Source: Phyllosticta citribraziliensis
Taxonomy: Eukaryota
Direction of reading: 5' to 3'
Assembly: GCF_038025025.1 (NCBI RefSeq)
Contig: NW_027117349.1
Location: forward strand, 1,054,001-1,118,000
Length of the DNA: 64,000 nucleotides
In this document: positions 1 to 45,371 of the stretch, one piece after another
Layout: each line of letters starts with the position of its first letter
How positions within the stretch are numbered: position 1 is the stretch's first letter
Position numbers and translations under genes: made by a program
The notes under the pieces: generated by a model
Told to the model about the DNA's origin: nothing
What the model saw: the letters and a program-made list of their open reading frames with translations, nothing else
Databases searched by the model: none

Positions 1-78
1 TATCGGGCACATGGCTGTGATCTGGCAAGAGCGCCGTCCTATTCACATGGTCAGTTGAGGGTGCGGTAGTTCTAGGTC

Positions 79-290
79 TTGAATGCTCCTCAAGCGCGTA
101 GTGTTCAGGGCACTGAATGCTTCTTGTTTCCACTTTTTGCGCGCTTGAATGCTCCCTACACCTTCCGGGTTGAGAAGTTGAATGCTCCTTGACTGCGTCA
201 TGAAGAGGAGCTTGAATGCTCCTTATTTGCGTAATGGCAAGGGTATTGAATGCTCCCTGGCCGTGTTTCTTTCGACGCACGAATGCTCCT
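79..290 (+). repeat. Array of seven 12-bp direct repeats (consensus TTGAATGCTCCY) with unique 20-22 nt spacers
   Basis: GAATGCT cores at 81, 115, 147, 180, 214, 248 and 281 (periods 34, 32, 33, 34, 34, 33); spacers unrelated to each other. Confidence 0.9.
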
Positions 291-825
291 CAGGTGCTGG
301 CCCAATTCGTGGTGGAGAGGTAGGTGCTTTTGCCCTTTTTACTGTTGGACATCTTTCTCTGACTTGAAGGCCGAACTCTGCCCCGCGGCCAGCAGCGGGC
401 ACAGTACTTGAGCTCGCCAGCTTGGGAAGTCGCAACGCTTGTGCTGGTTGGCAACAAACACTCTCCGCCGCCCTCTCCCCTTCTTCCATTTCTCTGCATC
501 CCATCTCCTGACAACTATGGCCCATTGACCGTTTCCCTTAAACCTGGGTCGACCTCTGCAACCGCCGCGTACCGCCGCTCAGCAACCGCCTACGTCAACC
601 CAAGCTGACCTCACATTCGTGGGTCCAAGGTACGCTTTCATCTGTGTAATTCCATCGCGATTGCAGGTCAACTAACAGCAATGGCGCAGAAGAAGCTGCC
701 GATACCCAGTCACCGATTCTGCGGAGTTAGATACAGTACTAGGCCAAAAGTATTTACTTAATTAGCCAATAACGCAGAACACAAAATCGCGCACTTACAT
801 CCCCCCCCTTTACTTTACTACCACT

Positions 826-3702: not shown

Positions 3703-3853
3703 AGTATTAGAGAACAATAATAGAGTTAGAAATTAATAGAGTGTTAGAGATTAATAGAGTATTAGAGATTAATAGAGTATTAGAGATTAATAGAATATTA
3801 GAGATTAATAAAGTATTAGAGGATAATTAAGTACTAGAGAATAATAGAGGCTA
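3689..3853 (+). repeat. RIPped 18-bp tandem repeat (TTAGAGATTAATAGAGTA, about 9 units)
   Basis: Corresponds to the less mutated PENNGV-like coding repeat at ~3027-3140. Confidence 0.8.
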
Positions 3854-15552: not shown

Positions 15553-15665
15553 CATGAATGCTCCCCGTCGCCCAGCTCCTCAGATCATGTATACTTCGCG
15601 GTCCCTACCTCTCCAGACGGACGAATGCTCCCTGTCCTCATCCCACCTAGAGAATGCATGCTCTT
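15553..15665 (+). repeat. Degenerate ~33-bp phased GAATGCTCC array
   Basis: Cores at 15556 (9/9), 15589 (6/9), 15623 (9/9), 15656 (7/9). Confidence 0.55.
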
Positions 15666-18600
15666 CATAGCTCTCCCTTCAGAGCGCATAGCTCCTGCTC
15701 ATCCCACACAAACAACGAGTCCAGAAGCCCCATTTCTATATTCCGTGCAAGCCAATAAATTCTCCTGGTCGTTCTTACTCAACATCTGTGTACGCACTGC
15801 ACTGTATACCAATATGTACCAAAACAACGAAACAAATTCTCCGGCAATCGCCTCCCCCGCCCTATTTCTTCTGTCTCTCGTCGTCTCTCGTCGTCCATCG
15901 AAGACGACAACGTCAACATTCCCAACGCCATTCGTTGGCACCATTCGACAGGAACAGAGGGAAGTCGATTGACGAGATCAAAGCCGAAGCCGGCTGGCGG
16001 GCTGCCTCCACCGCATCGGCTGCTGTAAGGGGCGTAGCGCGTGCTCGTCCCGGGGTTGGCACTCAAACCGCCGACTGGCAACCCAGGCAGCCGTGTCTGG
16101 CGTGTATTGCGCCGGCTGCGGCAAGACATTCAGGGTCCAAGGTAAGCGTCCAAATCGTGTTTTGTTCCCGAAATCTCAGGAGAGCAACGCTGCGGGAGTT
16201 CCTTTGAGAGATCCTCCGATCAAGACTACTCACTGACTGAACAAAAGGATATTCGGTGTTTTCCTCTGACAACACTTCCAACATACCATATCACTGCCAG
16301 GCGAACGCAGAAGACGGTCAGGGTGTAGACTGGCTTGGGAAGCTGTCCATCGGACCCCGCCAGCCGTTGCAATTGGAGCTGGATGAGCAGAGACACGAGA
16401 AGTCGTTTTGCGGAACAGGGCGGAAGTCTGTAGCAGAATTCGAAGATAGGTACCCGTCAGCAGTGGAAATGGAGAATCGGTACTATTGCAGGCCAGAGTC
16501 GTCCACGAGGTGCGTGTGTTGCTAAGCTGGACAGCGGGCAGTCACAAAAAGTACATGTACTCGAGCGCGCTTTCTGGGACTGTGCCACCGCAACAATCAA
16601 CAACGCAGCTCTTCCATCCAACCTCGCGCCTCTTCGACATCCCATTTGAGCAATTCGACTCCGATGAAGCTGTCTCTGCCCTCGAATCGACTTGAGGTCT
16701 GAGCGCGTCGGTGCCGTCGCCGTCACCGTCGCCGTCGCGCGCTTTCCGCTTCGAATCATCGCGAACGCTGCACGACCTGCACATCGACGCTCGTGGCCTA
16801 GCATCTAGTGACGAGTCTCGTGCTTCATCTCTAATCGGTTACCTCTACACAGCTGCGTACCTGGCCCGCCTACCTTACTGTCTATGTTACGCTTTGCCGC
16901 TCTGCATAGGTCATGGGCTGCAGAGGCTGTTCCACAACCGCGGCATGCACCTTTCCAGAGCAATCCCACCACCTCATAAGCAAACACTGGGGCGCAGTGA
17001 GCGAATGAAGTCACCTGTCCAGACCGCGCCGGGCAAGTCGCGCTCAGTTGTCATCTGCTTGCTACGAAGACCACTTCGACGATACTTCCTGACGGCTGCA
17101 CGTGCAGCAGAAACCGGCCTCACTCTCTTCTCCGATACACTCGCTTCGGGTAAGGCCGCGCGCCATCCGAATCCGAACTCTAACATTCAGCAAACCACAG
17201 CAATCCAAAACGCTTGAGGCACCCATCGCAAATAGGCGCGGTTTGCCAAAAAGGTACCTCGAGCAGCGCGCCACGCCGCGCCCGCTTCCCGCTCTGTCTC
17301 GCCCTGTCTTGCCCCATTCAACCCTGCCTGTCTCACCCCTACGCCACGCGGCGGGAGGGCGACGGGGGTCAGGGAGCAGCGGGCGATGGCAGCCGGGATG
17401 CGGGTTCGTTGGGTTTCTCCTGTGCAGATGCACTGGGCGTCTGCTGCGCTGATGTTCGAATCCAAATAGACGGTGGAGGTGGCAGAGATGACAAAGCTGA
17501 AGATTTTGTTGGTCCCGGTGGCGGGGATGAGGTGGGATAAACGGAGCGTGGTATTGTGGGGACGGAGAAGAAGGGACGGGGTGTTTGTGCAACTGTGGCA
17601 CGGGTCTCAAGAACAGGCTCGCGTTCCTGGAACGAAAGTTAATAAGTTTGCTGTGTTTGGTGCTCAGTTGACCTCCTTGAAAAGCTGCGTCGTTGGAGAG
17701 GAAATGCAGAGCCTGTACATCCCTCCAAATATTTGATCAATCAAGCCAAAAGCGCAACCGTGCAACAGAAATATTGCGCAAATCTACACCAGTATTTCGA
17801 CATTTGCGTTCGCCCTCCTGTCTCCAGCGTCCAACGCGACCCAATCCACAAATCGTCAGTACTGCGCCTCTTCTTCCAAACATAGCCTCTCATCTGTCAT
17901 CAGAGAAGCCTCTCAGCAGCACAAGCAGTGAGACGAAGTAAGAAGTAGAAGCCGACCTGCCAGGGACAGCGGGGTCCGTTCGTCCCACCATCCACCGTCA
18001 CACTGAGCTGTTCTTCAGGCCTGTGACTTTCCTTCGTGCGAGGCAACGTACATCTGCCATTTCCACCTCCATTCGCATCGGCTTGGACGCGGGAAGAGGT
18101 GGAGTGACGATCCTACGCCGCTCTGCTTTTACCTGCGCGGTTTGGTTTGACGCGCCGCGATAAGGCGAAGCGGTAGGGCGGTGAAAGGCTCGATCATAAG
18201 TGAGCCGGACAGAGTGGCTGAGTTTACTGCATGTGCGGTGGTGTTTCCTGCGCCATGCGGGCTTGGGATGCGGGTGTTGGTGTGGCGCTGGATCCTTTGT
18301 CTGCCGTGTTTCATGCGCTTCTACTGACCCACGCGCCGATGATGCGGGGAATCTTTTGTGAAAGACTGGGAAAGGGCACATGTTGCTGCGGTGTAGCCAT
18401 GATGGTCATTAGTTAGGTAAGAGAGAATCGAAATCTTCCCTACAATCTCACTGTGGTCCCGCCCTGGGTTCAGCAACATTCGTCGCTTTTGAAATTCTTC
18501 ACTCTCCCACAATGACGGTCTTCATGACCTTGGCTCGACAGATTTGGAGACTCCAGAGTCGCGTAGAAACCAACGCACCTGCCGCACAAAGCAAAGAGAG

Positions 18601-19531
18601 AAGGAATAGTAGGTAGGTAGGAGTATCTTCCTCCCCACCCACAGCAGGCACAGTAGGTGTGGTAAGTCTCTTTGGCTTTTTCAACGTTGAGTCTGCCTCT
18701 GTGTGTGGAAGGTGTTTGCTGGGGAGCAAAGCCTCGAATTTGTAGCGGAAGATCTGAATGCCGAGAGTGCTGCCTTGAGCATGGACCGATGGCACACGGG
18801 CGACGACCTCATCGTGCGCGGAGAATGGCCACATGGAAATGCACGGCGCCATGACATGGCGACGCGCGATGATGTCGCCATCAGACTCACAAGGAACATT
18901 TCGCCAGAAGCATGTGGAAGGTCGAAGAGGCTTGCGACAGAAACTTCTGCTGGCAACGGTAGCATCCCGATGATCAAGGAGCATTCATCGGCGATGGAAG
19001 CTTGCGGTCCTGTTTTCTCGCACTGGAACAGTAGCCTGTTGCTCTTTTCTTCGCGTTGTTTCTTTCCGCTTGTTGGGCTGTGGCGATTCCTGTGCGCATG
19101 GTCCGCGAACTCAGGCCAAGATTGCCCCTGAAACTGCCAGCCCCTGACACCCCCTGAAGCAGGAAAACGTGATGCAGTTCGCGTTTTACCATCGGCAACT
19201 GCAACAAAGCATTCGAAAAGATGTTGAACGCGCCTCCAATCGCAATGGTCTATCCACAAAGCGCAAGATAGCCGTTCATCCAAGTTCTGCCCACCGGCCG
19301 CGGCGAGGGCCATATCACAACAACCATCGATCGCATTGTTTCACAAACAAGACTGAGGGCTCCCCATCTCCTTCAGAGCCTATGGACTGCTAAAGATATA
19401 GCGTCGATCAATTCAACGACTGCAATCGCTGTGAAAACTCCAAAAAACCCTCCTGCACCCCCAACTCCTCACTTCATGATTCTACAACAGTAGACCATCA
19501 AAACGAATCGCTTTTAAAGCCAAAAGAGTAA

Positions 19532-19667
19532 TGCGTCGGCCGGGAATCGAACCCGGGGCTCATCGAAGTCGAAACTGTCGTGATATCCTGATGGTGTTGA
19601 GGTTTTGCTCAGACTCCACTAATCACGTGCTTGGCAACGATGAATTTTACCACTAAACCACCAACGC
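19532..19667 (-). tRNA. tRNA-Gly(GCC) with a 65-nt intron
   Basis: 5' GCGTTGGTGGTTTAGTGGTAAAA; anticodon stem CATCG/CGATG; GCC at 19635-19633; T arm GGTTCGATTCC; 3' CCGACGCA; intron 19567-19631 at position 37/38. Confidence 0.95.
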
Positions 19668-20165
19668 TTTTGAGTGGATTATGAAAATTGCAGTGCCCAA
19701 TACAATATATATACGTAAATTTTAATGACTCGGATAAGCCTCCAGTCCCCTTGAAGACCCCCATGTCCCCTCCCCTAGTGACATGGTTTTAGGGAGTTTT
19801 TGAATTTCCTGCTTCTCGGATCAGTCTTTAGGTAGAATTCCGCCTTCCAACTAAGCGAGAACTTGGAAGCCGAGGTTTTTGATGTATCAACAAATAAATA
19901 TACGAAACTCAAGCAAGATTTATGTTGTCCATGCATGTATTCTGGAAAAACGTATGGCTCGCCGCTTTTTCCGCATCTCGCCCCCACTCCTTAAATAGAC
20001 AGCATATTCTGTGATACCTGCAGGATCCACTTATTCTCTACACGATTGGTCGCAAACGCGGGGTGCGGCACAGCATCTCATGATCTGTTGATGGTGGGTG
20101 TCGACCGCAGACAACCTTCACACCACCAGAACGGGAGGAAGCAATCAATTCTAAGCATTTGCACC

Positions 20166-21650
20166 ATGGAGACTTCGTCTACAATAGCATCATGGCTCTC
20201 TTTCCTTGTGACATCGGTCGGGCTGGGCTCGCTCATCTCACAAGCCAGCGTCATCAACGACAAAATGGACCCCTTTCATGACCAGCGCTCAGTCAAACAC
20301 CTGGGAATCTGGTTCTGCCGACAGCCGCAATTTCCCTTTTGGAAAGTCGCGAAGCCACCTCCAATTGGACCCGAGATCAACGCAAAGCTCAGCGATGGGT
20401 TCTGCGGATTAAGCGCTGTACACCTATCTAGAGTGCCCGTGTCACAGCAAGCCGGCGAAGCGGGATGGGCCACGTTCCTTGCCGTCATCCACCAAGAGCA
20501 GTTGCGAATCGTATCTTCTTCCGCTGGCGACATCGAAGCCGAGAAAGGACTGCTTCTCAAGGAGATTGAACGCGAATTGATTCGTAACGGCTGGGAGTCT
20601 CTGCCAAAGTCCCCCCTCGTCCGCCACAGGAAATCGGCGTGCATTACAATCAGCCGGACCACGCTTTTGACCTTGCTCTCCATAACGAATGCGCGGCCTA
20701 TTTTCCGCCATAGCGATGCAGCAGGACATCGCGCAGCCTATGCATCTTACTCTGGACAGTGGTACATTGACTGGCCCTTGGGTTCGCCGGCAACCGTCAG
20801 CTTTGCCGCCCACGACTCCCACTCCGCCGCAACAGATGTGTATCCCCTTTCTTTCGAACGGAGAGTCGACAAGTGTATCCAGATGACTGCAGGAATCATT
20901 GCGACATTCGACTTCAAAGTTGCGTTTCCAGGCCGCAAAGCACCGGGAAGATATGTTCTCGAACACATCCCCAAAGGATTTCCAGGTGCACACGGAAGTC
21001 GACACCTCTACAACATGATGGGTGGAAAGGTCTACGAGATTGACTTTTTGTTCGCGCGGAAGCTTGGCCCCAACGACCCTGAGCCACCGCAGGCAATCAA
21101 GCTCAACCTACCCAGTACTGCAAAAGGCGAAGTCGAAATGTTCGTCTGTGCGCCGGAACAGGAAATCTTGAGTCGAGCGATGGATAGTCTGCCGTGGTCA
21201 TCACTCTCCTGGAGCATTCACCGGGGTCTCCGTGATGTTCTCATGGCATTCTCAAAAACTCGCATGGATGAGCTGCGCTCGCGGTTTGCGTCTACGCTCC
21301 GCCAAGCCGTGCGAGACAATCCTTTGGCGCTGGATGCACTCGGATGGGAGCCGACTTTTGTTCGGCAACACATGGGAGACATGGCTGCGGGAGCAGTCGT
21401 TGCCGGCAGCGGGAATTCCGGAGATCTCGTTCGCGTCGTCACTGACATGACTCTGGCACTGTGCGGCAGCAATAATCTCAAAGACCTCGACGAAATCACG
21501 TTCTGGCGGTCTCCTGTCCAAGATGCTGACGCCACAGATCTCGATCGACAAGCCATCATCGCCTTGACAAAGTGTTTCATCCTCGAATGGAGCACAGAAC
21601 TTGACTACCAGATGTATCACGACCTTCCCCTTAAACTGTATTTTGCATAG
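20166..21650 (+). CDS. Uncharacterised protein (~494 aa) with a hydrophobic N-terminal segment
   Basis: Long uninterrupted ORF, good start context (CACCATGG), globular composition; no family motif recognised. Confidence 0.8.
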   Translation: METSSTIASWLSFLVTSVGLGSLISQASVINDKMDPFHDQRSVKHLGIWFCRQPQFPFWKVAKPPPIGPEINAKLSDGFCGLSAVHLSRVPVSQQAGEAGWATFLAVIHQEQLRIVSSSAGDIEAEKGLLLKEIERELIRNGWESLPKSPLVRHRKSACITISRTTLLTLLSITNARPIFRHSDAAGHRAAYASYSGQWYIDWPLGSPATVSFAAHDSHSAATDVYPLSFERRVDKCIQMTAGIIATFDFKVAFPGRKAPGRYVLEHIPKGFPGAHGSRHLYNMMGGKVYEIDFLFARKLGPNDPEPPQAIKLNLPSTAKGEVEMFVCAPEQEILSRAMDSLPWSSLSWSIHRGLRDVLMAFSKTRMDELRSRFASTLRQAVRDNPLALDALGWEPTFVRQHMGDMAAGAVVAGSGNSGDLVRVVTDMTLALCGSNNLKDLDEITFWRSPVQDADATDLDRQAIIALTKCFILEWSTELDYQMYHDLPLKLYFA

Positions 21651-24600
21651 TCGGTTTCTTGGATCTTCCAGAAGCTGCCGTCATTGAGCGCATACGTCTT
21701 TCTTTTTGGATTGGTTGTGTTTGGGACCAGTGTGTTTGAGGAGAGCGAACCGAAGGCGTTCCGAGCGTCGTATTCTCCCGCAACTCTGTGCCTGGAATGT
21801 TCTCATGAGCTCGTAAGCAGCCGGCGCCGTTTGTTTCGTAGAAACCGAGAGAGTTCCCCGTGAGCCGCAGCACCGAGTTTGACCACAATCCGACCATCTC
21901 TTGGGTGTTTGTCTCTCATTTACCCACCCGCTATTCCGAAACGAAACGGAGCGTTTTCACAATGCCTCAGAGCTGTGGAGGTCCAGAGAACGCGGCCCGG
22001 CAGGAAACGGCTGGTAAATCTGCCATGGCACGAAACAGCGAGAGGATCCCTCCTACTGAACCAGCGATTGTCTCTGCCTACGCGGCTAGCTCCGCTCGCA
22101 TCGCTCGGCAAGCTACCCATTACGTGAATCTTGTCGGGTATTTCGGCGTCATATCCAGGTAGGTGTCTGCAAGCCCTTGATTTCTCTCACAAGGAACTCC
22201 ATGTTTCGGCGAGCGGCTCTGTCACTTGTGGGAGGGATTGCTAGGCGGAAACAGGGCGATGATGCATAGAAGAGGCAGGGCAGGTGAGGCTATCGTGACT
22301 GTCCAGAACATAAGAGCCTCATGACCAAGTCGCTCGGCTCGACAAGAAATTCCATGGTGTGGTTGGCATAGCGGGACGCTTCAATTCGCGGTTTCTGACG
22401 CTCCGTTGCGGCGTAAGCGCGGAGGGTTGTAGAGGGGCTGAGGTGTTCGTCCGTACGCAGACGACACGAAGAAGGAGCCAAGGCAGCGAGGTGGTGAAGG
22501 CAGACAAAAGTTGGAGAGCTCAAGGATTTCAAACGTCTCGTCCTTTCGGCGGAGAAGCGACGAGCTCGGTTCGGTTGACGATCTCGAAAAGCGCTATGAC
22601 TCGCAGATCGACGGCCACGACTTTCGACATGCCGGGCTGCCATCATTCAACACCAAACCCTTTCATCTCGACACTTGACAAATACTCCTCTTCATCGTTC
22701 ACTGAACATTATCTCCGAGCCACAGAGTTGTTGACCTCGAGCAGGTGTCTTATCGCAGGTCGAAATCATGATTGGCGATGATGCCTCGCTTGCCGAAGCC
22801 GTTGACTGTTAGGTTCTTCGTCTGCCATCTTTTTCAAACCATCATCCCGCCATGAGAGCACGCCATCCAGTACCTGCTAGATTTTCCTTCAAGCTCGTAT
22901 GCAGCCCGAAGAAATTCGCTCTGTAGATGAACAAAGGGTCCTTCGTCCTGCAACGTCGAAACGGTCCGGCAGGCGTTGGCTGTTGGCAGATGCCGGACGC
23001 TCTCGGGATCGAACGATCGCGGCGCGGAGCGTCGGGCTCCCGCTACTGTCCTAAGCCTTGAAGCCGCTGCCATTCGGAGGCTCTCCCTGGTAGTGAGCGC
23101 CCTGCCAGGTTTTGTGGATGTCCGTCCTCTCCGATGCACTACAGAATCCACGCATCCTCGACCTCGCGCCTGCCTAAAGGATTTCCTAGCCCTCCCGATT
23201 CCAAGTCTTGGAGATGCCAATGCGCTCAGTACACTTTTCCAAACCTCACTCAGGGCATGTTCGAACAAGAGGTACTAAGCCTAATCATGTGGAGCCAACC
23301 GGGCAGAAACTATGAAGACGACAGTCAGACATTAGTCGCTTGTTCATGTTTCAAAAAAACAGAAGAAAAGAGGCAGCTTTCTCGTCAACCACTCCCCATA
23401 CTGGCTCAGAAGCCGAGATTGAAATGACTTTGGCCAGGCAAAGTAAAGATATGCCCTGCTTAGCGTCCATGTCAACGGACCCAGGACGTATCAGGCAAGT
23501 CGCAACATGTTTTGATTGGTGCAAATGCTCAGGAATTATTCTAGCAATGTTTATGCACGGACCGATGAATCTGTCATTGCATTATTTGTGGCTTTAGAGA
23601 AAATGAGGCAGTATTCTGTTTCAAAAAGAGGCGGACCCCGGGCACGTGCCAGATCTAGTGCACCCAGACGCCCGCAAGTCCTACACGCACGTACGGTTTC
23701 CTTGGCCTTATGCAGTGACCAAGGCATGTGCACGAGTACCAGCGATCTGTCAGAGCCTGGCTCTTTGCGCACCGAGAGGAAGCCGTTGACTTCCGTCTTC
23801 ACGGCTTATTCCTGGACCACCAGCAACTGCGTAAACTTTGAAGAAGAGTTGTGTCTATCGTTTGGTAAACAGCATCGGCAGTTTGGACATGTCAAATATC
23901 GCTAGGGTATAAGTGGCAAGATCGATTTGTCACTTCACACATTACAGGTAACGGAGCCTTCTTTTCCATGCGCTCGTGCGTATTTGGTTTCAGCTTCGAG
24001 AATACGCGCTAGATGTCAATCTCCCGCTCTCTCTGCTCCAACAGACCCATGGAAAAGACCAGTGGATTGAATTGCATCTTCAAAGATCCATCGAACGGAA
24101 TCATTGCTCCTCAAGCTCCCGTTGACTTGGAAAGGTTACTACTCCTCTCGCACACTTCAGAGTCGAGTATCGCCTCCTGAAACCCAAGTCATAGCAAAAG
24201 CACAATCTCGAAGTGCAGCTGACTCAATGTTTGCTCGGCCTTGCTGACAGGAGCTCGCCATCCGGTCGAGCCGAGAATGCCATTGCCCTTGGACTTTTCC
24301 AAAGGGCAACTCCATGCGCGACAGTATTCGCCTTACGCGTCCAAGGGTTTCAATGTCACTTGTCACAGAATTTTCTATGCCGGACCGTCGGTACTCCGTC
24401 CGCCTTGACCACGGCTGCATAGTGCAACAGCCCTTGTCAAATTCAGCTTTATGGAATCTGGAAGCACGAGAGAAGGTCATCCAGGAAGCCTTGCGGCTCT
24501 GGACTGCCAAGTGACCTCGCTGCCTAGGTGCAGCCCTCGTGATGGTACTGTACAAAGTAAGGCGGACGCCCGCCAACGGGTCGAGGTTCTCCTGCTTTCC

Positions 24601-24939
24601 GAAAGACCCAAGTTCCACCGCTGCCTGTTGAAACTGACCGCGGCATCCAGGCCAACTTTTTTGTTTGGCTGTTTCTCCGTGCCTAGGCCCCTGTTCTGAA
24701 TGACGTCAAGGGGACCGATTGTTTGGATTCTCCGCTCTCGTCCGCAAGTGATCCTCCGGCATGTCGGCCTCTACAGGATGGAGAGGCGATTCTATAAGTA
24801 TAGCCTCAGTTCACTGCAAGAAGTTTCGTTTCTCATCAGCTCCACAGAACAAGTCAAATACTCCTATCCTCTCCACTTTTCAGAGAGAAAATCTCTGGAG
24901 TCAGATCCTCCGCCACCTTCTCCTCGGGTCCAACGACTC

Positions 24940-25100
24940 CATCTACAGACCCTTCACCTCGAACAATTACGCTTGGAACGGCAACTTCTTCAAGAACTTT
25001 TTCTCCGCGAACTCTACCTCCAGCAGCTGTATCTGCAACAGCTCTACCTTCGGCAGCAGCTACAGCTCCAGCAAGAGCTCTGCCGCGAACACATCTACCT
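24940..25100 (+). repeat. Degenerate 15-nt repeat (CTCTACCTCCAGCAG-like)
   Basis: Reads LYLQQ/LHLEQ pentads in one frame and Ser/Asn-rich in another; lies upstream of ATG 25157. Confidence 0.55.
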
Positions 25101-25156
25101 CAAGCAGGGAAAATCGGCATTACCGGATCCAATCCAGCTTGCCCGAATTCTCCAAA

Positions 25157-26761
25157 ATGGGTCGAGTGTTTCGGATCTTGGCCATTTCGGCCGTTCTGGC
25201 TGCAGCCAGCCCCTTGCCGGCCTTGCCAGGAAGCCCCTCTCCGCAAGCTCATCAGGGCGAGGCACGTCCTCTCCCTGCTGACAGTGGCAAGAGCTTCACG
25301 GACGAACTTGTCGATGGCATCAAGACCAGCTACGCGAAAGGGATAGCTCTTGCTACTGGAGACTCTCCGATTTCGGTTGATGTGCCAAAGGGCATGCCAG
25401 TCGAAGTCGACCGTGGCCACAACGGCATTGGCGTTTCCGTCGGCGGTATCGGGGTCGATGTTGGAGATGGAGGAGTGGGAGTGGATGTTGGAAAAGGCGG
25501 CCGCCCCGGAGTGGGAGTAGACGTGGGCAAAGAAAAGGCCAAGGTCCCAGCGAAGCGAGACATTTACGACATGGACGAAGACTGGAGCCTCACTCGACGC
25601 GACGACCTAGTGGACGCAGCAAGCCTTCCCTACATGCACACTGGTCCCGTCGACACCACCCATCGGGAAGATCAACCATCAAATGAAAACCGCATCCAGG
25701 CCAGAGATGACGACCACCACGACGATGACTGGCGTGGCGGTCGTCGCGGCAGGGGAAATCGTGGATTCCGCCAGGACCGCGCTTGGGGAGGCCGTGGCGG
25801 AGGCCGTGGCGGCGGATGGGGAGGACGAGGAGGCGGCTGGGGCAATGGACGCGGTGGCCGTGGCGGCGGATGGGGAGGCCGCGGTGGACGCGGACGCGGC
25901 TGGAATCGAATTGCATCGGTCGACGAAGCAGACTTGGCCGGCTCTCAACCATCCAACTCTACCATCTCCTTCAACCCTCCTACGAACAACCGAGGATCCG
26001 GTCTGACTGGTAGCCCCAATCCGTCCAAGCCCGCCAACTCTTTCGGCGAGCCTGACAACAGCTTTTCCGTACCGGTAGGCGAGGCTGGCGAGTTCAATCA
26101 GCCTGGCTCAAGCAACACGATCCCTGGGTCCGATACAAACAACACACCGACTCCTAATGGCTCATCTAGCCCCGTGATCGTGCCAAACCCCTTCAACCAG
26201 ACCGGCTCCAGCGACCAACAACAAAGCGGCTCAACCGATCAAACCAACGGCTCCACAGACCAGACCAACGGCTCTACAGATCAATCAGGCGACTCAGACG
26301 GCAGCCTCATCATCGATAACGGCAGCGAAGACCACCAGGATGAGGGAAATGACAGCGGCAACGACAACAAACTCAAGAAGCGCGACGTGATCCGCTGTAA
26401 CGGCGACGACAACGATAACCGCCTCCAATGCTTCTGCGACGACAGGAATGACAACCGCCGCTGGAGGAATAACCGCAACAACAACAACCGCGTCATTCTG
26501 GACCGGGACCACGACCTCGACCGACGGGACTTGGAGCGCCGCGATGTCGAAGCCAGCGCCTTGACCCGCCGCCACTGGGGCCATCGTGGGGGCGACAACT
26601 GGGGCCTAGCGAACGTAGGGGTTGACGTAGACGTAGATGTAGACCACAACGACTGGGACGACGATTGGAGGCCACGGAGGGGTGGAAACAATGGAGGTGT
26701 TGCGGTTGGTGTTGGGCCTGGTGGAGCCGTTGGCGTGGTTGGAGGCGGCGACGATTGGTGA
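25157..26761 (+). CDS. Secreted low-complexity protein with multiple dibasic (Kex2-type) sites
   Basis: Signal peptide MGRVFRILAISAVLAAASP; KR/RR sites followed by Asp; GVGVDV, RGGW, GSTDQTN and Asn/Asp/Arg-rich blocks. Confidence 0.85.
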   Translation: MGRVFRILAISAVLAAASPLPALPGSPSPQAHQGEARPLPADSGKSFTDELVDGIKTSYAKGIALATGDSPISVDVPKGMPVEVDRGHNGIGVSVGGIGVDVGDGGVGVDVGKGGRPGVGVDVGKEKAKVPAKRDIYDMDEDWSLTRRDDLVDAASLPYMHTGPVDTTHREDQPSNENRIQARDDDHHDDDWRGGRRGRGNRGFRQDRAWGGRGGGRGGGWGGRGGGWGNGRGGRGGGWGGRGGRGRGWNRIASVDEADLAGSQPSNSTISFNPPTNNRGSGLTGSPNPSKPANSFGEPDNSFSVPVGEAGEFNQPGSSNTIPGSDTNNTPTPNGSSSPVIVPNPFNQTGSSDQQQSGSTDQTNGSTDQTNGSTDQSGDSDGSLIIDNGSEDHQDEGNDSGNDNKLKKRDVIRCNGDDNDNRLQCFCDDRNDNRRWRNNRNNNNRVILDRDHDLDRRDLERRDVEASALTRRHWGHRGGDNWGLANVGVDVDVDVDHNDWDDDWRPRRGGNNGGVAVGVGPGGAVGVVGGGDDW

Positions 26762-27271
26762 AGAAGGCAAGGCAAGGCAACCATTTCCCCAGCGCAGCAC
26801 TTTCGTCCATCCTCCTTTAGCACCTGTTCTTCCGTTCGGTATCGTGTTCGAGGAAGGCTAAATCTGGTTCCATTCTCTGAGCATATTTTCCTGGCATACT
26901 AATATTTCCCTTCTGCTGTTTTCCGTTTCCGTTGCTGATACCGCTTTTGTTTCTTTCCTCTTTTCTTTCTTGTCAACTCGGAAGTCTTGGTCACTGCACA
27001 GCAACACATCCCTCCTCTCAAAGGATTGATTGTACACCAACCCCTTCTTGTAACATAAGGCATACCAACACCGAGACTGGATATAATAACAGAAAGCTTT
27101 GAATCCACTTCTGCTTCCAACTGCGTCTTGAAATCTACCCACCCCATGGACTCAATGATTGGTGGGATATGTGCTATGGAAGGAATATCTGAAGTGAACT
27201 TAAACACGCAAGACCAGGTTTCCCATTCATTACTGCTGCGAACTTAATGCTGACTCTTAGTTTTGAAACTG

Positions 27272-27385
27272 CACGAACGCTCCCTCTGTGTGTCCATCTT
27301 CACCTACGAACGCTCCCTTTATGTATCTCGTCCGATGAAAGAACGCTCCCTCTCTGTATCCTCCTCAACACACGAACGCCCTTTG
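27272..27385 (+). repeat. 33-bp period array of GAACGCTCCCT (4 units)
   Basis: Cores at 27275, 27308, 27341 and 27374 (last one degenerate); spacers partly similar. Confidence 0.85.
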
Positions 27386-27740
27386 CCCCATCCGCACCCC
27401 CATCCGCACCCCCACCCTCTCGGCAGCTTTCTTTTTCTTCAAGAACTCCACACTCCCGCCCGCACATCCACCGCTGTAACGCAAGCTCCCTCCACCCTTC
27501 CGCCTCATGCCGCTGCATCCACTAATGGGGGTGCAAGTGCCCATCTCTCAATCCGTCCGCTGAAGAGCAGCCACTGCGCAAAGTATATCTAGCAACGAGT
27601 GGCTCAACATAGCACGACACACACAGGTACAGCACACAACCACATACTCAACCTCAAGCATCGAGCACTCAAACAGTACGGTTAAAACGTACAGAACAAT
27701 TGCAATGGGAGATTGGAGATTTGATATAACAACGACAACA

Positions 27741-27762
27741 GCACGCACGCACGCACGCACGC
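27741..27762 (+). repeat. (GCAC)n microsatellite
   Basis: GCAC x5. Confidence 0.8.
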
Positions 27763-28168
27763 GGCAGCGAGCCAGCCCCCTTCCATCCTTCTACGCCTGA
27801 GTAAGGAAAAACGGGGAAAGGGCATGCGAAAGGAAAAGTAAAAGAGTTTGTTGATGAGCACGTTTCAAAAGGTGCGCATGTGTGTGTTGAGTGTGTTGTG
27901 TTGTGGAGAGTGTACCGTACGTCCGTCCTTTGTCTGCTTGCTTTGTCTGCCTCCGCCTCCGGCCGACGTCGTCCGCTCTGCCGACTCGACTCGTTTCGCC
28001 CGAATTCAATCAATCAATCCACGGTCCGCCCCAAATGCTCAACGACAGCAACGACGAAAAAAGTCTACCTACATGCTTGCTTGCTTTCTTTGCTTTTCGC
28101 GCAGCGCTGCCCGCTCAACCAGCAGCGCCGCCACTCACAAATCCATCCGAGCGATCCAGCAAACGCAT

Positions 28169-31032
28169 CTATGCTGGAGGAGTGCCAGGCGGCGTAGGCG
28201 GAGCGCCGCCGTCCTCCTTGCCCAAGCTAGTCGGGGGGAGGTCATCCTCGCCAGGCAAGCTGTGCTCAGCGCCAAAGTACTTGGTAAAGTCCTTGGGGTC
28301 CTCAAAGGGGCGCTTGCCGAGGAGGCGCTCGAGGTCGTCGCGGGTCAGCATCTCCTTGCGGAGCAGCTCCTCGGCGACGAGGCCGATTTCCGCCTTGCGC
28401 GCCGCCAGCAGGTCGCGGCACTGCTTGTACGCGTCCTCGACGATGCGCCGCACCTCCTGGTCGATGTTGCGCGCCGTCTCCTCCGAGAACGGCTTGTGCA
28501 GCTGCGACTGCGGGTCGTCGTCGTAGTGCAGGTAGCCGATCTTGCGCGACATGCCCCACTTGGTCACCATGGCTGACGCCATGCGCGTCACCTTGTTGAA
28601 GTCGTCCGACGCGCCCGACGTCACCGTCTCAAAGTGCAGCTCCTCCGACACGCGCCCGCCGAGCGCCATGGCCATGCGGTCCAGCAATTGGTTCATCGTC
28701 ATCAGGTACGTGTCGCTGGATGGAAGGTATTGTGCGTATCCAAGAGCGCCGCTGCCGCGGGGGATGATGCTGACCTTGAGGAGGGGGTCGGCGTGCTTGA
28801 AATACCAGCCGCAAATGGCGTGGCCAGCTTCGTGGTAGGCGACGGTCTTCTTGTCGTTGGGAGAGAGGACCATGGACTTCTTCTCGAGACCACCAATGAC
28901 ACGGTCAATGGCTTGCTCAAAGTGCTTCATCTCTACCGAGTCGGCAGAGTATCTGGCGGCTGCAGATTGTTAGCGTTCTTGCGTCCGAAAAATTCGGACA
29001 ACATACCAATGAGAGCAGCTTCGTTGACACAGTTGGCAATGTCAGCGCCAGCGAATCCAGGGGTGAGGGCAGCCAGACGGCCAGTCAAGAATTCAATGTC
29101 TTCTCTTGTCGCGATTCTCTTCAAGTGCACGGCAAAGATTTGCTTTCGTCCCTCCATGGTAGGTGCGTCAATGGCAATGTGTCTGTCGAATCTACCCGGC
29201 CGCATGAGCGCCCTGTCGAGCACATCCGGTCGGTTGGTACCCGCAAGAACCACGACTTGCTCCGAAGTGTTGAAGCCGTCCATTTCGGTCAAGATCTGGT
29301 TGAGCGTGCTCTCGCGTTCGCTGTCACCGCCGCCAATGCTCTGTTTGGCACGCGATTTTCCAATGGCGTCGATTTCGTCAATGAAGATGATGCACGGCGT
29401 GTTTTTCCTTGCCGTCGAGAACAAGTCACGGACGCGCGAAGGACCCACACCGACAAACATTTCGATGAATTCGGAACCGCTGACGCTGAAAAAGGGCACA
29501 GCCGACTCTCCAGCCGTCGCCTTGGCGAGCAGCGTCTTACCCGTACCAGGAGGACCAGACAGGATGGCACCGCGGGGAATCTTGGCTCCTAGCCGTTGGT
29601 ACACGCCGGGGTTCTTGAGGAAGCTGACAAATTCCATAATCTCTTGCTTTGCCTCGTCCATGCCCGCCACATCGGCAAACTTGACCTTGATGTCCGCCTC
29701 GTGGTTGAATCTCTTGGCGCGACTCCGGCCCATGCCAAAGACACCACCGGATCCGCCGCCGCCACCTCCAGCTCTTCTGCCCAAGTAAAGCAGGGCGCCG
29801 ACAAATAGTATCGTAGGGCCAAAAGACAGGAAGGTGGCTACCCAAGGAACCTCGTCATTGTACGAAACCGGAATACGTTCGGCAGTAGGAATGTCCAGAC
29901 GGTCCTGGACGGCCTCGAGCTTCCTCTCAAAGACATCGACTGAGCCAATTGTGAAGTAGTAGTGGAAGTTGGGGTTTACGGCGGGAGAGTCGGGATACAT
30001 TGATTGAACGGCGTCTCTCTTGAGATGTACCCTTGCCCTGGAGTGACCCATGACAACAATCTTCTCAACGAGACCCTTTTCCAAAAACGTGCTGGAGAAT
30101 TCTTGGAACGAGATTTCCTGCGTCGCCTCACCGGGGGAAAGGAATCGGATAAACATGTACGTGAGGAATAAGGACGTCAAAGTCGTTCCCAGATCAAAAG
30201 ATACTGCTGATGAGAAATCCTTCTTCTTGTCGCCGTATTTTCCTTTCTGGTCGCCCTGCTTGCCATCCTTGCCGTCTGGCCCAGGATCCTCGCCCGTCTT
30301 TTGATGCGGTTCCTGTTGATTGGGTTGTTGCTGATTCGGGTCGTCCTTCTTTGGCTGATTCTGTTCCGGTTGGTCCTGGGTGGGCTGCTTTTGCTGAGAA
30401 TCCTTCTGTGGTTGACGCTGGTCAGATTGGGCACCCGAGCCGGAGCGACCCTGTTGCGGTTGACTTTGGTCTTGCGGAGTTTCGTTCTTCGATAGATCTT
30501 GACCGCTCGATTTCTTCAACTCTTCTGATGTTATGACGCTTAGGAGCTTGGTGACGTCGCTGAGGGATGGTCTCTGCGGGCTCATCATAACCTTGTGCAT
30601 ATCCTTGTGAATACCATTGACTTTCCATTCCTCAATGTACCGTTCGAGCTGCGTCCTCATGAACTTGGGGCAAATTTTGAGGACAATGTCGAGACGCTCC
30701 AAATCCGATTGCGTGAGCTTGATGTAGTCACCCTTGTCACCCTGGCCAGGCGTCGGATTTTGGTTGAAGTTGGGCGGTTTTCCCCCTTGCCCGTTGTTGG
30801 CTGCCGGGCTGTTCTGCTGTCTTGCATTATCGCCACTATTCCGGGAGCCTTTCGGGTCGTTTGGGGGCTTGGGCTTTTGCGTGGCATATCGTCGCGTCCG
30901 CTGGTGGGCGTAAGCTTGTCGCGGTAGGGACGAGATTGGAAGAAGAGGTCGTAATGAGATGCGCGATGCTAGGTCGATGTTGCTTCTCGATAACCGCGCA
31001 AGATGGCCTGACCGCAGTGCCAAAGTCGTCAT
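28169..31032 (-). CDS. yta12: Mitochondrial m-AAA (FtsH-family) metalloprotease, Yta12/Afg3-like
   Basis: Arg/Leu/Ser-rich presequence, two TM segments, Walker A GPPGTGKT, Walker B IFIDEID, RPGRFDR, zinc motif HEAGH; intron 28960-29006. Confidence 0.95.
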
Positions 31033-32937
31033 GTTCCAGGGAATTGGCGGCGCGCGTCGGACGGAGGGAATGGAGAGGGATAAGAACGGCTTTTGCAATT
31101 CACCATCCAAAGGACAATGTCAATGAAGGACTGCGGAGTGGCGAGATTGCGCGTGTTGGTTGTCGCCTTGATGACGAAGATGACTTTCGGTCCCCATAGA
31201 CTCGGCCTTCGGTGGAGAGGTTGATCCGGCCGCCCCGCAGGCGGTGAGCGATCACCAAATCAAGACCGCAGTCCGGTCCTCACCTCTCTCCATTTCATTT
31301 CATCTTACGGTTTCATGTTTCTATCCTTTCGCGCTTCGCATATCTTGAGTGAAAGATCATCTCGCCTTATCATCTGATGGCGGTGTGTCGCGGATTAATC
31401 CCAGACCCCTTTCTCTACCATTTTCTCTTCGACGTTTTTCCTCCCTCTCACTGTAACTCGAATATTTTCTGACGGACGGTGCCTCCTTATGTTCATCTGA
31501 AAAACTTCCAACAATGTGTATTTCCACGCCGCGAAAGCATACCGCTCCGCAACGCCAATGCCAAGCGAGCAAGTCGCAATACCCCGTGAGTAGACCAGAG
31601 CCCATCCAAGTGCGCGCCACTGAGCAAATGACATCACAAAGCGCATCAAGTAAGCAAGCGTGCGCCAGAAACTAACCAGCACACGCCATAAGCACGCACC
31701 ATCACCACAACAAGTGCATCGGGACGAGCCAGGTGAGATCCAACGACGACGACGGCGACACCACCACGACGCCTCGTCCATTTCCATGTAAATACTATGT
31801 ACAGTGAACACAACGACACAGAAAAGACACGCGACGGGGCGAACGACAGAAAGCCGTCCCGTCTCCATCGCGTGCCTTGCCACTGGGGGCAGCAGGGCAA
31901 CTGGGGGGATATCAAACCGAGCGCAACAGCAAGAGCAGCAGAACAGCAGAAGAGAAAGGAGAAGAAGAAGAGAAGAATTGACAAGAGAGAGGTGGGAAAG
32001 GAAGGAGAGAGAACAAGTGAAAGGAACAAGAGTTGAGGGCCTATTACAGCAAGCAGCTAGCTGCACAAGCTTAGCTTGCCAAGAAATCGGGAGGAGAGCA
32101 AGGAAATCGACGGCTAGAGAGCCGACTGGAAAATGCCCATATGTTTCAAGGACGAGGAGTCAGGGCTCAATCCGTAATCCTCCTCGTACCACGATGAATC
32201 TTTTCCATCCACCGTAGATAGACAATTCCCAGCCCTCCAACTCGAACGAAAGGGAAAACGCAGGTCGGTTATCCAAGGTATAAACAGAAACCTCTCGCCG
32301 AGCCCGACTCGGGCCAAGGTTTGTGAAAAGTGAAACAAGGCAGGCGCGGCAGCAGCGAGACTGTATTTACAAACTGCCAAAAAAGGGGTGATGGCAGAGG
32401 CTGTGCTCTAATTTTGTGCGCACCGCCCCAACCAAATCCAGCGCTTGTTTGCTTGCATTGCATGCATACCCGCAGGGCCGCCAGACTTGGAATATAAGGT
32501 TGGAAATATCATGTACAAGAAAATTAAGAAGGGGGAATGAGACAAGACATGTGGAAGGAAGAGCGCGTACCTGCGCTGTGGAATATTGACAGTGGCGCAA
32601 GCTCCGCAGCCTCTGCGCCTCAGGTGACTGCAGTGAGACACAAGAGTGCTGCAGAAGGGGCCAGACCGCGTGGCAAGAGAAAATATTATTCGACCAGGAA
32701 AATTGGGGAGGATCGATATTCAACATTAGGCCGCGCGCGCTGATTGTTGTGACACTCCAAAAAATCAAGAAACGGTTGTTTGATGAGACTCGAGGCGGTG
32801 AGCCAAGGCAAAGGGTCTGGGTATCAAGTCTTATCCAAAACAGCTGATCCTCTTCGCCTTGGCCGCAAACCGCAGAGCCTCGAAAAAGAGGATCTGCCTC
32901 CGATCGAGTGAAAAGGCCGTATGTTGCAATTGTTTCG

Positions 32938-34975
32938 TCACACATCTTCCGTAAATTTTGATCCTCGTGATCCGTCGTGTGACCCGAGACTGCGACCCAA
33001 TGTCCCCCGACTGCCCGGCCGAGGCGGTAGGTCAAACACCTCGTCAGGCCCGGTGAACATTGAAGGGTGTCTGGGACTTTGGTGGACAACTGGGGTCCGA
33101 GCGGGACTGGGTCTCAGCGTCTCCACGGGCGTTCCAGGAGTGGATGGCCTGTCAGGGCCAAATCCTGGCGTTGAGGGGCCAGCCGCTGCAGCACCGCCCA
33201 GAGCGACAGCCGCCGCAGGGGACATGGGGGGTGAGCCGTAGCCACCGTGTAGGTTTGCATTTTCGCGCGGGACTCCAGGGAAAGAGGTAACGCTGGCATT
33301 GTCGTCGCCGAACGGGTCTTCGGACGTCATTCCCGGGCTAAAGGCAGATGGCAGCTTGCGTCCAGATATGCGCTGGAAGCCACGTTCTGCTGGAGGCGGC
33401 GGTGGCTCAATCTGACGATTTCCAGACAAGCGGCTGAGAAGGCCACCCATGGCGAAGGGTCCACTGCGTTGTGCCATGCCCTGACCACCACTGCCACCGT
33501 CGGCCGGCGCAGTAGGATCCGCGAAGGGGTTTTCCGGATTGTCTCCTGCAGCGCCCAGTTGCTGTGGCCTCTTTTGCCTTTGCTTGTACCACCGAAGTAC
33601 AACCAGCGCAATGATCAACAATACCGCAAGACCGCAAAGTCCACCGATAACACCGCCAATAATTTGTGGTGTAGTTGCCCCGTCGGAGTTGTTCCCTCCG
33701 CTGTCTGCGCCGCTGGTTGAATTGCCCCCTGCAGTGGTCGCTCCACCGTCACCGGCGACAAAGGTGCCTCCAGTAGAAGTAGGTTCCGATGTAATCGAAG
33801 AAGAATATTCTGTGGTTGAGCTCGAAATGGTAGAAGATTCGGATGTCGAGGACGATGTGGACGAAAGCGAGGTGGAGGACGTGGAAAGCGAGGTGGAGGA
33901 TGTGGAGAGCGAGGTGGAGGACGTGGAAAGGGAGGTGGATGATTCCGATGTCGACGACGTCAAGGATGTGGTGGATGAAAGCGAGGTGGAGCTAGTGGAC
34001 GTCAAGGATGCCTCGGAAGTGGAACTGGTTTGTGTTTCAATTGTGGAGGAACTCGTAATGGAATCTGCCATGACGGATGCAGCTGACGTGCTCAAGGTGG
34101 ATCCTGAGGCGCTTGATGACGGAGAAACTATTGGAATGTTAGCTTCATCTACAACACATTTTCTGAAACAACGGCCGCAATACATACACGTCGAGACTGA
34201 TCCACTGGTTGTGGCAGCCGCGAAAGAAGTCGTCGATGGGGTTGAAGATGGAAGGAGATTCGAAGACGTCGATATGGAGTTTGGTATGAACGGTATGACC
34301 GTCAACGAGGAAGAGGCGCTCTCCGACGTTGATAACGTCGATATCGCACTCGAAGGTGTCGAAATGGCGATTGGCGTAGTCGGAATCGTGTTTGAAGGAG
34401 TAGAATTGTTGGATGGCGTCGTACGTGAGCTGGCATTGGGAGTGAGTGGGCCAGGAGTTGATGTTACGACCGGGAGCGTGCCGGAAGATGTCCTGAAAGG
34501 TTGGGAAGAGTATTGAGGAGTTCTACTTCTGGAAGAGTAGGTCGCCGGAGAGCTCCGAGTTTGCGGCGTGGAAAACGATGGCGCTGGACGTGACGTGCTG
34601 ACAGAGGACGACGAAGTAGGTTGAGGTACTGAAGACTGTGTTCCAAGACTAGTACTACCCGAGGCTGAAACCGAAATGCTCAAGCTCGAAGTCCCAGGAA
34701 TCGGAGGCGTATTGAACGGGTAGGACGGGACAGTTGGAACGCCAGGCGACGTGGGAAACGGCTGTACCGTCGGAACCGCAGGCACCGTCAGGGATGATGT
34801 GCTCGAGGGCGTCGGCACCGGAATGGACGAGGAAGAGCTTGTCAACGGAGTCGCAGAGGTCGAGGAAGATGCCAACGGGCTCGTCAAAGTTGACGAAGTT
34901 GACGAGGTCGACGAGGCCGAAGGAGTTGACGTCGAGGTCGAGCACAAGGTTGAAGACGAAGAAGATGTAGTCGTT

Positions 34976-35007
<32 letters not shown>

Positions 35008-35361
35008 AGGTAGAATTTGATCAGAACTCTTAGGAGTCAACGAGGTCATGGTCCTGATGCCAACAGTGTTCCCGGCCTGGTCTATTTGGCGAACAACAGT
35101 AACTACAGAGACTCCCTTTGCCTCTTCAGCATCCATCTCTTGCCGGTGAACCAACTTGTGCCTCAGGCCCAGCTTCCTAGGATCGCCGCGCTTCTCGCGG
35201 AGCAGCAGTGGCTCGTAAATGGTCGGGGCCGCCGTGGGAGCAGGAGTACTGTGAAGGACCGTCTCCTTGGCGACTTGCATTTTCCCAAAGCCCATGTCGT
35301 CATCCGCACGCAGGCGGCCCTGCCCTCGCCACACCCGCCTCCGTTTCGCGGGGCTCTCCAT
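32938..35361 (-). CDS. Ser/Thr-rich single-pass membrane protein (Mid2/mucin-like architecture)
   Basis: Long S/T tract with 21-bp repeats; TM IIGGVIGGLCGLAVLLIIALVVL followed by RWYKQRQKR; Pro-rich tail; in-frame intron 34128-34187. Confidence 0.85.
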
Positions 35362-40308: not shown

Positions 40309-40475
40309 ATGGAGATGTGGTGTGGGTTGGATGTGATATGAGATGAGACGAGACACGACGAGACGAGAGGTGTAGAGCGAGGATTAGAATGCACAGAGCG
40401 CCCTGTTTTCGTAGAGCGATAGAAAGATACCTAGCTAAACACGATACCCCATCCCCCATCTCCCAGCTACATAAT

Positions 40476-41087
40476 CTACAACCTCGCACCCACCAAAAAC
40501 GCATACGCCACCACAGCCCCCAAAACAACCAGATTCGTCGCCGAGCTCACGCCGTGCAAGATGGCAAACTTGCGATTCAGCGCCTGCATCTCCTCGCTGT
40601 GCGGGCCCGCATCGTAGCTCTTCTTCCCGTCGCGCGTCTCCTGGTGCTTGCGCTCCTTCATGACGGCCGTCGTCTGCGGGCCGACGAGCACGAGGTTCAG
40701 CAGGCCGCCGGCGGCCATTGCGATGGTCAGGTTGGTCGCTGTGTTGAATGTGCTCGTGGGGGACAGGGAGGCATTGGAGAGGGAGGAGGGTTGCGTCAGG
40801 TAGAGGGCGGCCGGGATGAGCGTTTGCAGCGTGAAGTAGACGGGGAAGATTTTGGATTGCAGCGAGGCGAATTGCGGGCGGGGGAGGACGCGGAAGGCGA
40901 CGACGCCGCCGATGAAGGATTGGAAGAGGGTGCTGCCGAGGAGGGTGCCGTAGCTGTTGGGGACGTGTTAGTGGGGTGGCTTCAGGTGCGCGATGCGATG
41001 GAGTGGTGATGGGAGAGAGTGGTGGTGGACTCACGCAAGCAAGTGGTACGGCGCGGGGTCCCCGAGGCTCGCGAATGTCGACGTCAT
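40476..41087 (-). CDS. TMEM205-like (DUF4149) membrane protein
   Basis: PYHLLAYGTLLGSTLFQSFIGGVVAFRVLPRPQFASLQSKIFPVYF ... LNRKFAILHGVSS; intron 40954-41034. Confidence 0.88.
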
Positions 41088-44681: not shown

Positions 44682-45371
44682 TGAAGTCTAGATCAGCGGC
44701 CCTTGCATAGCCTTCAAAGTTGAAGCAATAGTCTTGCAAAATGAAGGTTCCCAGTCCAGTCATGCAGGTTCCCAAAGCGTGCCGTTCGTTGCTCTGTGCA
44801 TCTGCTCCATCCTATCCCCAATTCGTACGTATCACACAGCACACCACTCCTTCCACAGCACACGACAGCAATCTCCCGACGCAAGCCGCGGCCACGGCCG
44901 CCGCCCAGGCTCGCCCGTTTTGATTGGCGATGGACACGTCCACGAGGAAATGTCCGCCGTGCTGGGTCTGTCATACCTGCCCTGTTTTTTCCTGCCGTGA
45001 CGGACGCTGTGCCACGGTCGCCGTTTGCTGCCGCCCCGGCCCTGCTGTGCCTGACTGAGGCAAGGGACAAATTAAAAACGCTGCTGTGTCACGCTGCACG
45101 CGGAGAGCGCAGATGGCTTGGCTCTTGCGTGCAAACGGTAGGGTGCGGGTGAGACTCACTAGAGGTGCTACTATGGTGTTGCAGGCTGCGCGGGTATTGA
45201 AAGATGGTGTGCTTATTGTGGAAGGTGAGTTGTGCTCCTTGGATTTCCCTGGTTTGGTGGCTAATTGTCTCGTTTTGCTATACGCCTGGGAGCATACGAA
45301 CAGAATCAAATATCTACAACTTCTGTATCGAAAAGGCTAGCTCAGACTCTTCTTCCGCCCTACAATAGCAA

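Follow-up and report, generated by a model that had tools for sequence, protein, structure and literature searches.

The window analysed here, a whole 64-kb stretch of ascomycete DNA from Phyllosticta citribraziliensis, carries close to its left end a row of seven nearly invariant cores set 32-34 bp apart (array 1). We give about an even chance to the view that array 1 is a row of putative recognition sites for one sequence-specific DNA-binding protein, within a small family of dispersed, non-coding Phyllosticta elements that are probably mobile. In favour of a mobile element is the occurrence, within 64 kb, of three arrays having the same core and period and standing at three stages of spacer decay. 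The species is described as a citrus endophyte (PMC9073689). AT-rich, RIP-damaged blocks lie at about 732-2690 and 3700-5200 of the window. The arrays, and the best-kept palindrome of array 1, are as follows.

79..290, plus strand: array 1, seven GAATGCT(C/T)C cores with a period of 32-34 bp
207..222, plus strand: best-kept 16-bp lopsided palindrome, with a weak arm to the left and an invariant one to the right of a 2-base centre; 6 of the 7 left-arm bases complement the right arm
15556..15697, plus strand: array 2, made up of about five units of 33-34 bp; two cores are intact and lie 67 bp from each other, and those at 15589 and 15656 are degenerate
27275..27382, plus strand: array 3, a recognisable minisatellite of four 33-bp units whose cores are of GAACGC type

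Core, palindrome and spacing of array 1

The cores of array 1 start at 81, 115, 147, 180, 214, 248 and 281, with gaps of 34, 32, 33, 34, 34 and 33, and an earlier, sequence-only reading of this DNA had given the same positions and range of spacing. For a 9-bp core, the inter-core linkers measure 23-25 bp; the spacers are 20-22 nt long. That reading had described a 12-mer repeated seven times. The seven cores are real, but the 12-mer TTGAATGCTCCY is exact in only five of them (the core at 115 is GAATGCTTC, with CT before it, and that at 281 has AC before it), and the conserved part is wider than 12 bp. Across the seven 9-mers, 62 of 63 bases agree. GAAYGCTCC was found 19 times in the 64-kb window vs 1.49 expected, and none of 100 shuffles got to 19. 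Array 1 was not among the repeats reported by Tandem Repeats Finder (score 30). The longest ATG frame starting within 1-516 has 61 codons; hence, the array 1 region is short and non-coding. The period is no constant multiple of 3, as had been stated earlier in holding that the repeat does not code. Array 1 shows no RIP, though a RIP block is only 440 bases away.

The 7 bases that precede each core of array 1 form a degenerate inverted copy of the last 7 bases of the core, around a 2-base centre. Matches in this inverted arm numbered 26 of 49, compared with 12.4 expected; none of 20000 draws reached this, and the centre was the best of 19 tried. At the same centre, array 2 gave 8 matches of 14 (p 0.012). 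The arm was absent in array 3 (7/21 matches) and in the 11 solo sites tested (24/77). The conserved unit of array 1 is, then, a lopsided palindrome of ~16 bp. Two half-sites of opposite orientation, one strong and one weak, would fit the mark left by a putative dimeric DNA-binding protein.

It had been proposed that array 1 is a phased binding-site array with about three helical turns between sites. At 10.5 bp/turn, the mean spacing of 33.3 bp corresponds to 3.17 turns, and the helix phases of the sites are 0, 85, 102, 154, 240, 325 and 17 degrees; they come into phase only near 11.1 bp/turn. The seven sites spiral round the B-DNA helix and share no single face. Since they wind through the full circle at 10.5 bases/turn, the 33-base period is better explained by the length of the unit as inherited, or by the stretch of DNA that a bound dimer covers, than by alignment on one face. 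A binding array is still the likeliest function, as suggested by core retention, the half-degenerate palindrome and the recurrence of the spacing at two loci, but the sites do not face one way.

The inner spacers of array 1 have an identity of 0.48, vs 0.48 in shuffles. Their alignment score slightly exceeded that of shuffles (p 0.011 and 0.032), and this excess was abolished on removal of the last 7 spacer bases, i.e., the inverted arm (p 0.19). The claim that the spacers lack evident similarity is thus correct for identity and for the spacers without the arm, while a slight score excess exists with it. With the arm removed in the same way, the spacers of array 2 were related to one another (p 0.007), and so were those of array 3 (0/1500 shuffles). 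Taking a minisatellite as a repeat with units alike along their whole length, arrays 2 and 3 are minisatellites and array 1 is not. The probability of keeping 62 of 63 core bases under uniform decay is at most 1e-5, even with units still 65% alike. The cores of array 1 are protected by something, and neutral decay is excluded; the argument that a neutrally decaying minisatellite should not keep so few of its bases is upheld.

Sister arrays, solo sites and copies in public runs

Array 3 sits between a long plus-strand ORF and a minus-strand AAA-protease gene, and neither array 2 nor array 3 is adjacent to an AT-rich RIP block. Comparison of spacers across arrays showed arrays 1 and 2, and arrays 2 and 3, to be alike (0/1500 shuffles each), but not arrays 1 and 3 (p 0.24). 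The related spacers within arrays 2 and 3, along with the likeness across arrays, indicate that a 33-base unit was duplicated in tandem and that the arrays have since decayed to three different degrees. Array 1 would accordingly have arisen, like arrays 2 and 3, by tandem duplication, followed in its case by drift around a protected site. The inter-site distances of 33, 67 and 100 bp that had been predicted do recur at two further loci within the 64-kb window. No fourth array was found there; the best other train of three sites scored 11.9, similar to other spacings. Clear flanks common to the three arrays were not found in the window, the only one of 36 comparisons to stand out having p 0.014 on retest.

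Outside the arrays, the word also occurs singly.

18978 (minus), 21211 (minus), 49994 (plus), 51760 (plus), 52683 (minus), 53975 (minus) and 62723 (minus), span 18978..62731: seven solo GAATGCTCC sites, no fold-back, no shared flanks
49371, minus strand: one solo GAACGCTCC site, no fold-back, no shared flanks

The seven solo GAATGCTCC sites compare with 0.58-1.15 expected under Markov orders 2-5 (P 3e-6 to 2e-4), and at least two of them (21211, 62723) are inside long reading frames. Fold-back around the solo sites was not in excess at four sizes of surrounding sequence, nor at 250 bases. A phase signal around these sites was not accepted: offsets of 32-33 were among the lowest mismatch values, but 67 and 100 were not. 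It may be noted that five of the eight solo GAAYGCTCC sites cluster, with several one-mismatch sites, at 49371-55473, near a polyketide synthase gene whose neighbours are FAD-binding, P450 and MFS genes. Separately, GGGTCGGGG is also frequent beyond 6000 (7 copies), at least part of which comes from a 6-base repeat at 34976-35006.

The array stretch, or part of it, was present in 6 of 11 listed public runs, of which X1, X2, X4 and X6 were compared. Run X6 (organism C) gave five contigs on 1-900. Three of these are alike over cores and spacers, at 85-93% identity; the other two are a 47-base two-core match and a RIP-damaged neighbour.

85..368, plus strand: block in common with a 2532-nt X6 contig (record 9), with unlike DNA on both sides and one 34-base unit fewer
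1..312, plus strand: block in common with a 448-nt X6 contig (record 8), left flank included, with two units (67 bases net) fewer
117..190: block in common with the third X6 contig, with unlike DNA on both sides

Array 1 and its look-alikes thus have 5, 6 or 7 units, and the gain or loss is of whole, internal units. As the look-alikes extend over the spacers, with different flanks and whole-unit gaps, the spacers are inherited and not acquired. At least two of the look-alikes lie at other loci, and the earlier statement that the spacers are unique is refuted by their presence in run X6. The 34-base skip in X6 might be taken for a GT..AG intron; it was read as a unit gap, being equal to one unit, with 16 ambiguous letters. 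No close second copy of the whole array was seen in X1 (probably RNA) or X2 (~4-fold deep), the 47-base match apart. That match, at 178-224 in X1, X2 and X6, is anchored by two cores, and was not accepted as proof that spacer 4 comes from another array.

Differences in the X6 contigs were scored only at ~31 bases or more from a contig end. They affected 4 of 61 core cells vs 11 of 112 spacer cells (Fisher p 0.58, a low-power count of cells and not of events). Three of the four core changes run away from the consensus, and all three are in the two contigs with unlike left flanks (3 in 34 scored core bases). The contig with the common left flank had no off-consensus change in 27 core bases vs 6 changes in 55 spacer bases, which fits continued selection, in numbers too few to test.

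The ends of a possible element were sought around array 1, where a weak inverted repeat is present.

24..46, plus strand: left arm, 17/23 match with 312-334
312..334, minus strand: right arm, 17/23 match with 24-46

Depending on the scoring, this repeat had p 0.03-0.41 over eight settings, with just 78 bases left of array 1 inside the window, and neither X6 boundary (312, 368) meets its outer edge. On these grounds it was not accepted as a terminal inverted repeat. Arrays 2 and 3 showed none (p 0.5-0.98), and neither a significant terminal inverted repeat nor a target-site duplication was found at the three arrays or around 18 tested positions. No joint skipping the whole of array 1 appeared in the compared runs. 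The likeness to X6 ends at 85/368, at or left of 1/312, and at 117/190 in the three contigs; hence, the copies have no common ends or length. Old decay could blur the ends of an element, and the left end at array 1 may lie outside the window. Dispersal into unrelated flanks is nevertheless observed, both in the two of three X6 contigs with unlike left flanks and in the three arrays of the window. Array 1 works like a transposon-borne site array; its membership in a MITE family is not established, because the terminal repeats are weak and the copies share no ends.

Downstream of array 1, a single contig of run X1 bears on transcription.

517..731, plus strand: broken reading frame, neighbour of array 1; a TGA stops it at codon 4, and RIP-damaged DNA breaks into it from about 732
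630..689, plus strand: intron of this broken frame, missing in the X1 contig and kept in the DNA runs X2 and X4
1..726, plus strand (covering 1-627 and 688-726): single 1049-nt X1 contig without the 60-base GT..AG intron, reaching 383 bases left of the window

Spliced RNA therefore probably runs through array 1, as judged from one study in which X1 is guessed to be RNA.

Origin and putative reader of the arrays

The following course of events would account for array 1 as part of a mobile element. A 33-bp unit with a ~16-bp lopsided palindrome would have been duplicated in tandem, as seen in arrays 2 and 3 and presumed for array 1. Selection for binding may have preserved the strong half-site, the filler around it drifting until it was random; the non-neutral retention of the cores is observed, and binding is its putative cause. 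Slippage or unequal exchange between cores would have added or removed whole units, as the counts of 5, 6 and 7 suggest, and arrays or pieces of them were copied elsewhere, as in run X6, presumably by a transposase. By analogy with Muta1 and VANC (below), the reader would most likely be a transposase or accessory protein encoded by the parent element, and its multimeric binding would tighten as sites are added. The copy at array 1, now in a probably spliced transcript ahead of a broken gene, may be a relic. Among the X6 contigs, cores are not detectably better kept than spacers (p 0.58), as expected of relic copies. Against a mobile element are the lack of a significant terminal inverted repeat or target-site duplication, of clear common flanks, of an identified parent transposase or reader, and of a close second copy of the whole array in runs X1 and X2. 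Should array 1 prove to be what remains of a small transposon, it would contribute a fungal example of a known design and not much else.

That design, site arrays formed via tandem duplication, has precedents. In VANDAL21, a 9-bp motif bound by VANC21 occurs in same-direction tandem arrays that gain and lose units, and sporadically outside the element (PMC5735166). Array 1 resembles such VANC arrays of the Arabidopsis VANDAL (Mutator-like) transposons in having a 9-bp motif, dense same-direction non-coding arrays, a probable tandem origin, unit turnover and solo motifs (PMC5735166). It differs in its fixed 33-bp period, half-degenerate palindrome and RIP-bearing fungal host; no VANC-like gene or autonomous element was found here, and binding is putative. 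In Muta1, a foldback MULE of Aedes aegypti, the nine 12-bp repeats are alike except for their linkers, and transposase binding and excision increase with the number of repeats (PMC5499845). Muta1 and the non-autonomous Muta1NA1 share with array 1 a repeated short site, differences in the linkers and a varying copy number (3, 7 or 9). The Muta1 repeats, however, are inside both terminal inverted repeats and have 3-4-bp linkers, while the sites of array 1 run in a single direct array, are separated by linkers of 23-25 bp and have no proven terminal repeat around them (PMC5499845).

Thirteen MITE families are described in Zymoseptoria tritici, ten short ones being without RIP dinucleotide bias (PMC4522978). 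Like fungal MITEs, array 1 is short, non-coding, dispersed in gene-rich DNA and free of RIP; unlike them, it has no terminal inverted repeats or target-site duplication that we could find, and an internal site array is not mentioned for the Z. tritici MITEs in the sections of that paper that we cite (PMC4522978). Neither MITEs nor minisatellites were found mentioned in the text of two Phyllosticta genome papers (PMC12506662, PMC9073689). The literature search gave no description of the GAAYGCTCC word, or of such arrays, in fungi. One 9-bp word, repeated at a fixed period of 33 bp in arrays that have naturally decayed to three different degrees, makes a sharp, testable target.

The main rival reading, about which we are doubtful, is that GAAYGCTCC is the site of a host DNA-binding protein (a general regulator, insulator or anti-silencing factor), solo sites and arrays acting as weak and strong signals under current selection, and mobile elements having merely captured arrays. 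The enrichment of solo cores outside any element context (7 GAATGCTCC sites vs 0.58-1.15 expected, with neither fold-back nor common flanks) is explained more simply by a host site than by a mobile element. A host site would also agree with the retention of 62/63 core bases amid random spacers, with array 1 being RIP-free 440 bases off a RIP block, and with the finding that no core is degraded in the X6 contig having the left flank in common. It does not agree with the loss of cores in array 2 while the spacers remain related, nor with the 3 off-consensus changes in 34 scored core bases of the two other X6 look-alikes. Moreover, the solo sites at 21211 and 62723, at least, lie within long reading frames, no AT-rich RIP block adjoins array 2 or array 3, and the frame downstream of array 1 is broken.

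Wider searches also bear on a host site. A metagenome scan of 241 million records for three cores at 32-34 bp gave 65 loci, all of them ordinary tandem repeats with related units (59 scored; the other 6 are 16-17-bp repeats). None of the 65 had unrelated spacers, so no wide conservation was seen, in records whose fungal coverage is uncertain. One metagenome contig (L133, 1494 bases) has GAATGCTCC cores 32 bases apart in a longer common motif with partly unlike filler. A viral scan with free spacing gave 98 loci, mostly with coding-type periods (36, 45, 27 and others), and no preference for 33 bp. The TEA/AbaA, HSF and B-box motifs do not fit the core. The Drosophila gypsy insulator, carried by a transposon, is a cluster of short conserved Su(Hw) sites that a host protein recognises, and the filler between them varies; array 1, unlike this insulator, has no retrotransposon context, and its reader and any insulator activity are only putative.

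An extension of the host-site reading, which we regard as unlikely, makes GAAYGCTCC a genome-wide address. A putative fungal DNA-binding protein would coat the 33-bp arrays cooperatively and shield them and their neighbours from silencing or RIP. The host would use this system, with unrelated small transposons exploiting it, and array 1 would be live and under selection at the edge of a RIP block. Such a shielding protein would be a fungal counterpart of VANC or of an insulator. Should the reader turn out to be a host or anti-silencing protein, the arrays would represent a sequence-specific chromatin signal of a kind that we have not found described for filamentous fungi.

That the array acts at the RNA level, forming small hairpins in a row or offering sites to an RNA-binding protein within an untranslated region, seems to us improbable. 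The probably spliced X1 contig does cover array 1, and the plus strand folds better than shuffles (z -2.36, 3/200; 2/150 with cores fixed). The fold is irregular, though, each core being paired to a different kind of partner with no repeated unit; the palindrome alone favours folding, and the minus strand has the same trend (10/150). Rfam has no match for array 1, its sole match in the window being a tRNA at 19532-19667. The core AUG is missing from array 3; hence, use as upstream ORFs would not be general. A chain of stop-start micro-ORFs (TGA then ATG in each core) was likewise rejected because array 3 has no ATG.

A neutral minisatellite, or chance decay with no selected site, is very improbable overall and, for array 1, already mostly refuted. 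In its favour, arrays 2 and 3 can be recognised as minisatellites, whole-unit gain and loss is seen, and the length scatter of +/-1 should need no selection on spacing. Against this are the core retention (P at most 1e-5 under uniform decay) and the finding that core and period are shared by three loci whose spacers differ. Whether array 1 aligns as a plain minisatellite had been put forward as a check, and it separates the loci: without the arm, the spacers of array 1 are unrelated and those of arrays 2 and 3 related.

A CRISPR-like array or small-RNA precursor, with spacers as acquired foreign pieces or excised 20-22-nt RNAs, is hardly credible: the spacers have that length and are near-random, and transcription of array 1 is probable, but they are inherited in the look-alikes, bear an inverted half-site at their ends and are related in the sister arrays, and units differ internally and not at one end. 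The spacers had no match in the rest of the 64-kb window; nor did 50,697 phage records contain one, which for a fungus is a weak test, and no nuclease or cas Pfam family was found in the 20 ORFs scanned of 96 listed for the window. CRISPR arrays resemble array 1 in their repeat-spacer look only; array 1 differs from them in its 9-16-bp repeat, inherited spacers, related sister-array spacers, eukaryotic host and lack of any cas family found. The suggestion of a precursor cut into small-RNA-sized pieces was not borne out, given the inherited spacers, the internal turnover of whole units, the irregular RNA fold and the absence of an Rfam match.

Broken frame and other features near the arrays

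Array 1 was said to end upstream of the ATG of an orphan gene at 517. The ATG is there, but the frame that it opens is broken at codon 4 (TGA), and then cut by RIP-damaged DNA from about 732. For the later part of this frame no homologue, family or Atlas match was found, and the protein P0121 of the orphan region (517-3860) had no homologue among 38 candidates. The same region has internal duplications, including two AYNRGF-containing stretches, one of them with a TAG stop. An 18/36-base coding repeat is present at 3029-3114, and a RIP-damaged copy at 3688-3860.

In the broken frame, exon 2 holds a RIP-damaged insert (732-~1680), which starts with CAGT after TA. By eye, it resembles the relic of a Tc1/impala-type transposase, with a degenerate catalytic-region motif in one frame; no Pfam match was found for the insert. 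Further on, at 4741-5126, there is a RIP-damaged fold-back element of ~390 bases, with nested inverted arms of up to 51 bases at 94% and no GAATGCTCC word. Small hairpins lie beside arrays 1 and 2 (375-405, 15452-15491), and a loose X2 end at 375 fits a fold-back at the first of these.

A 23-base match around a GT donor was observed downstream of arrays 1 and 2 (613-635, 16126-16148; p 0.014), with a weaker collinear match near 445-458 and 16054-16068. The match is possibly due to ancient paralogy or to chance. A downstream exon common to the two arrays was not accepted, this being the one comparison of 36 that stood out. Elsewhere in the window, the tRNA match at 19532-19667 (Rfam, 48 bits) is on the minus strand, has an intron-sized length and was missed by ARAGORN, and a Ku80 frame has 100% identity to a protein named for P. 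citribraziliensis and 91% to that of P. paracitricarpa.
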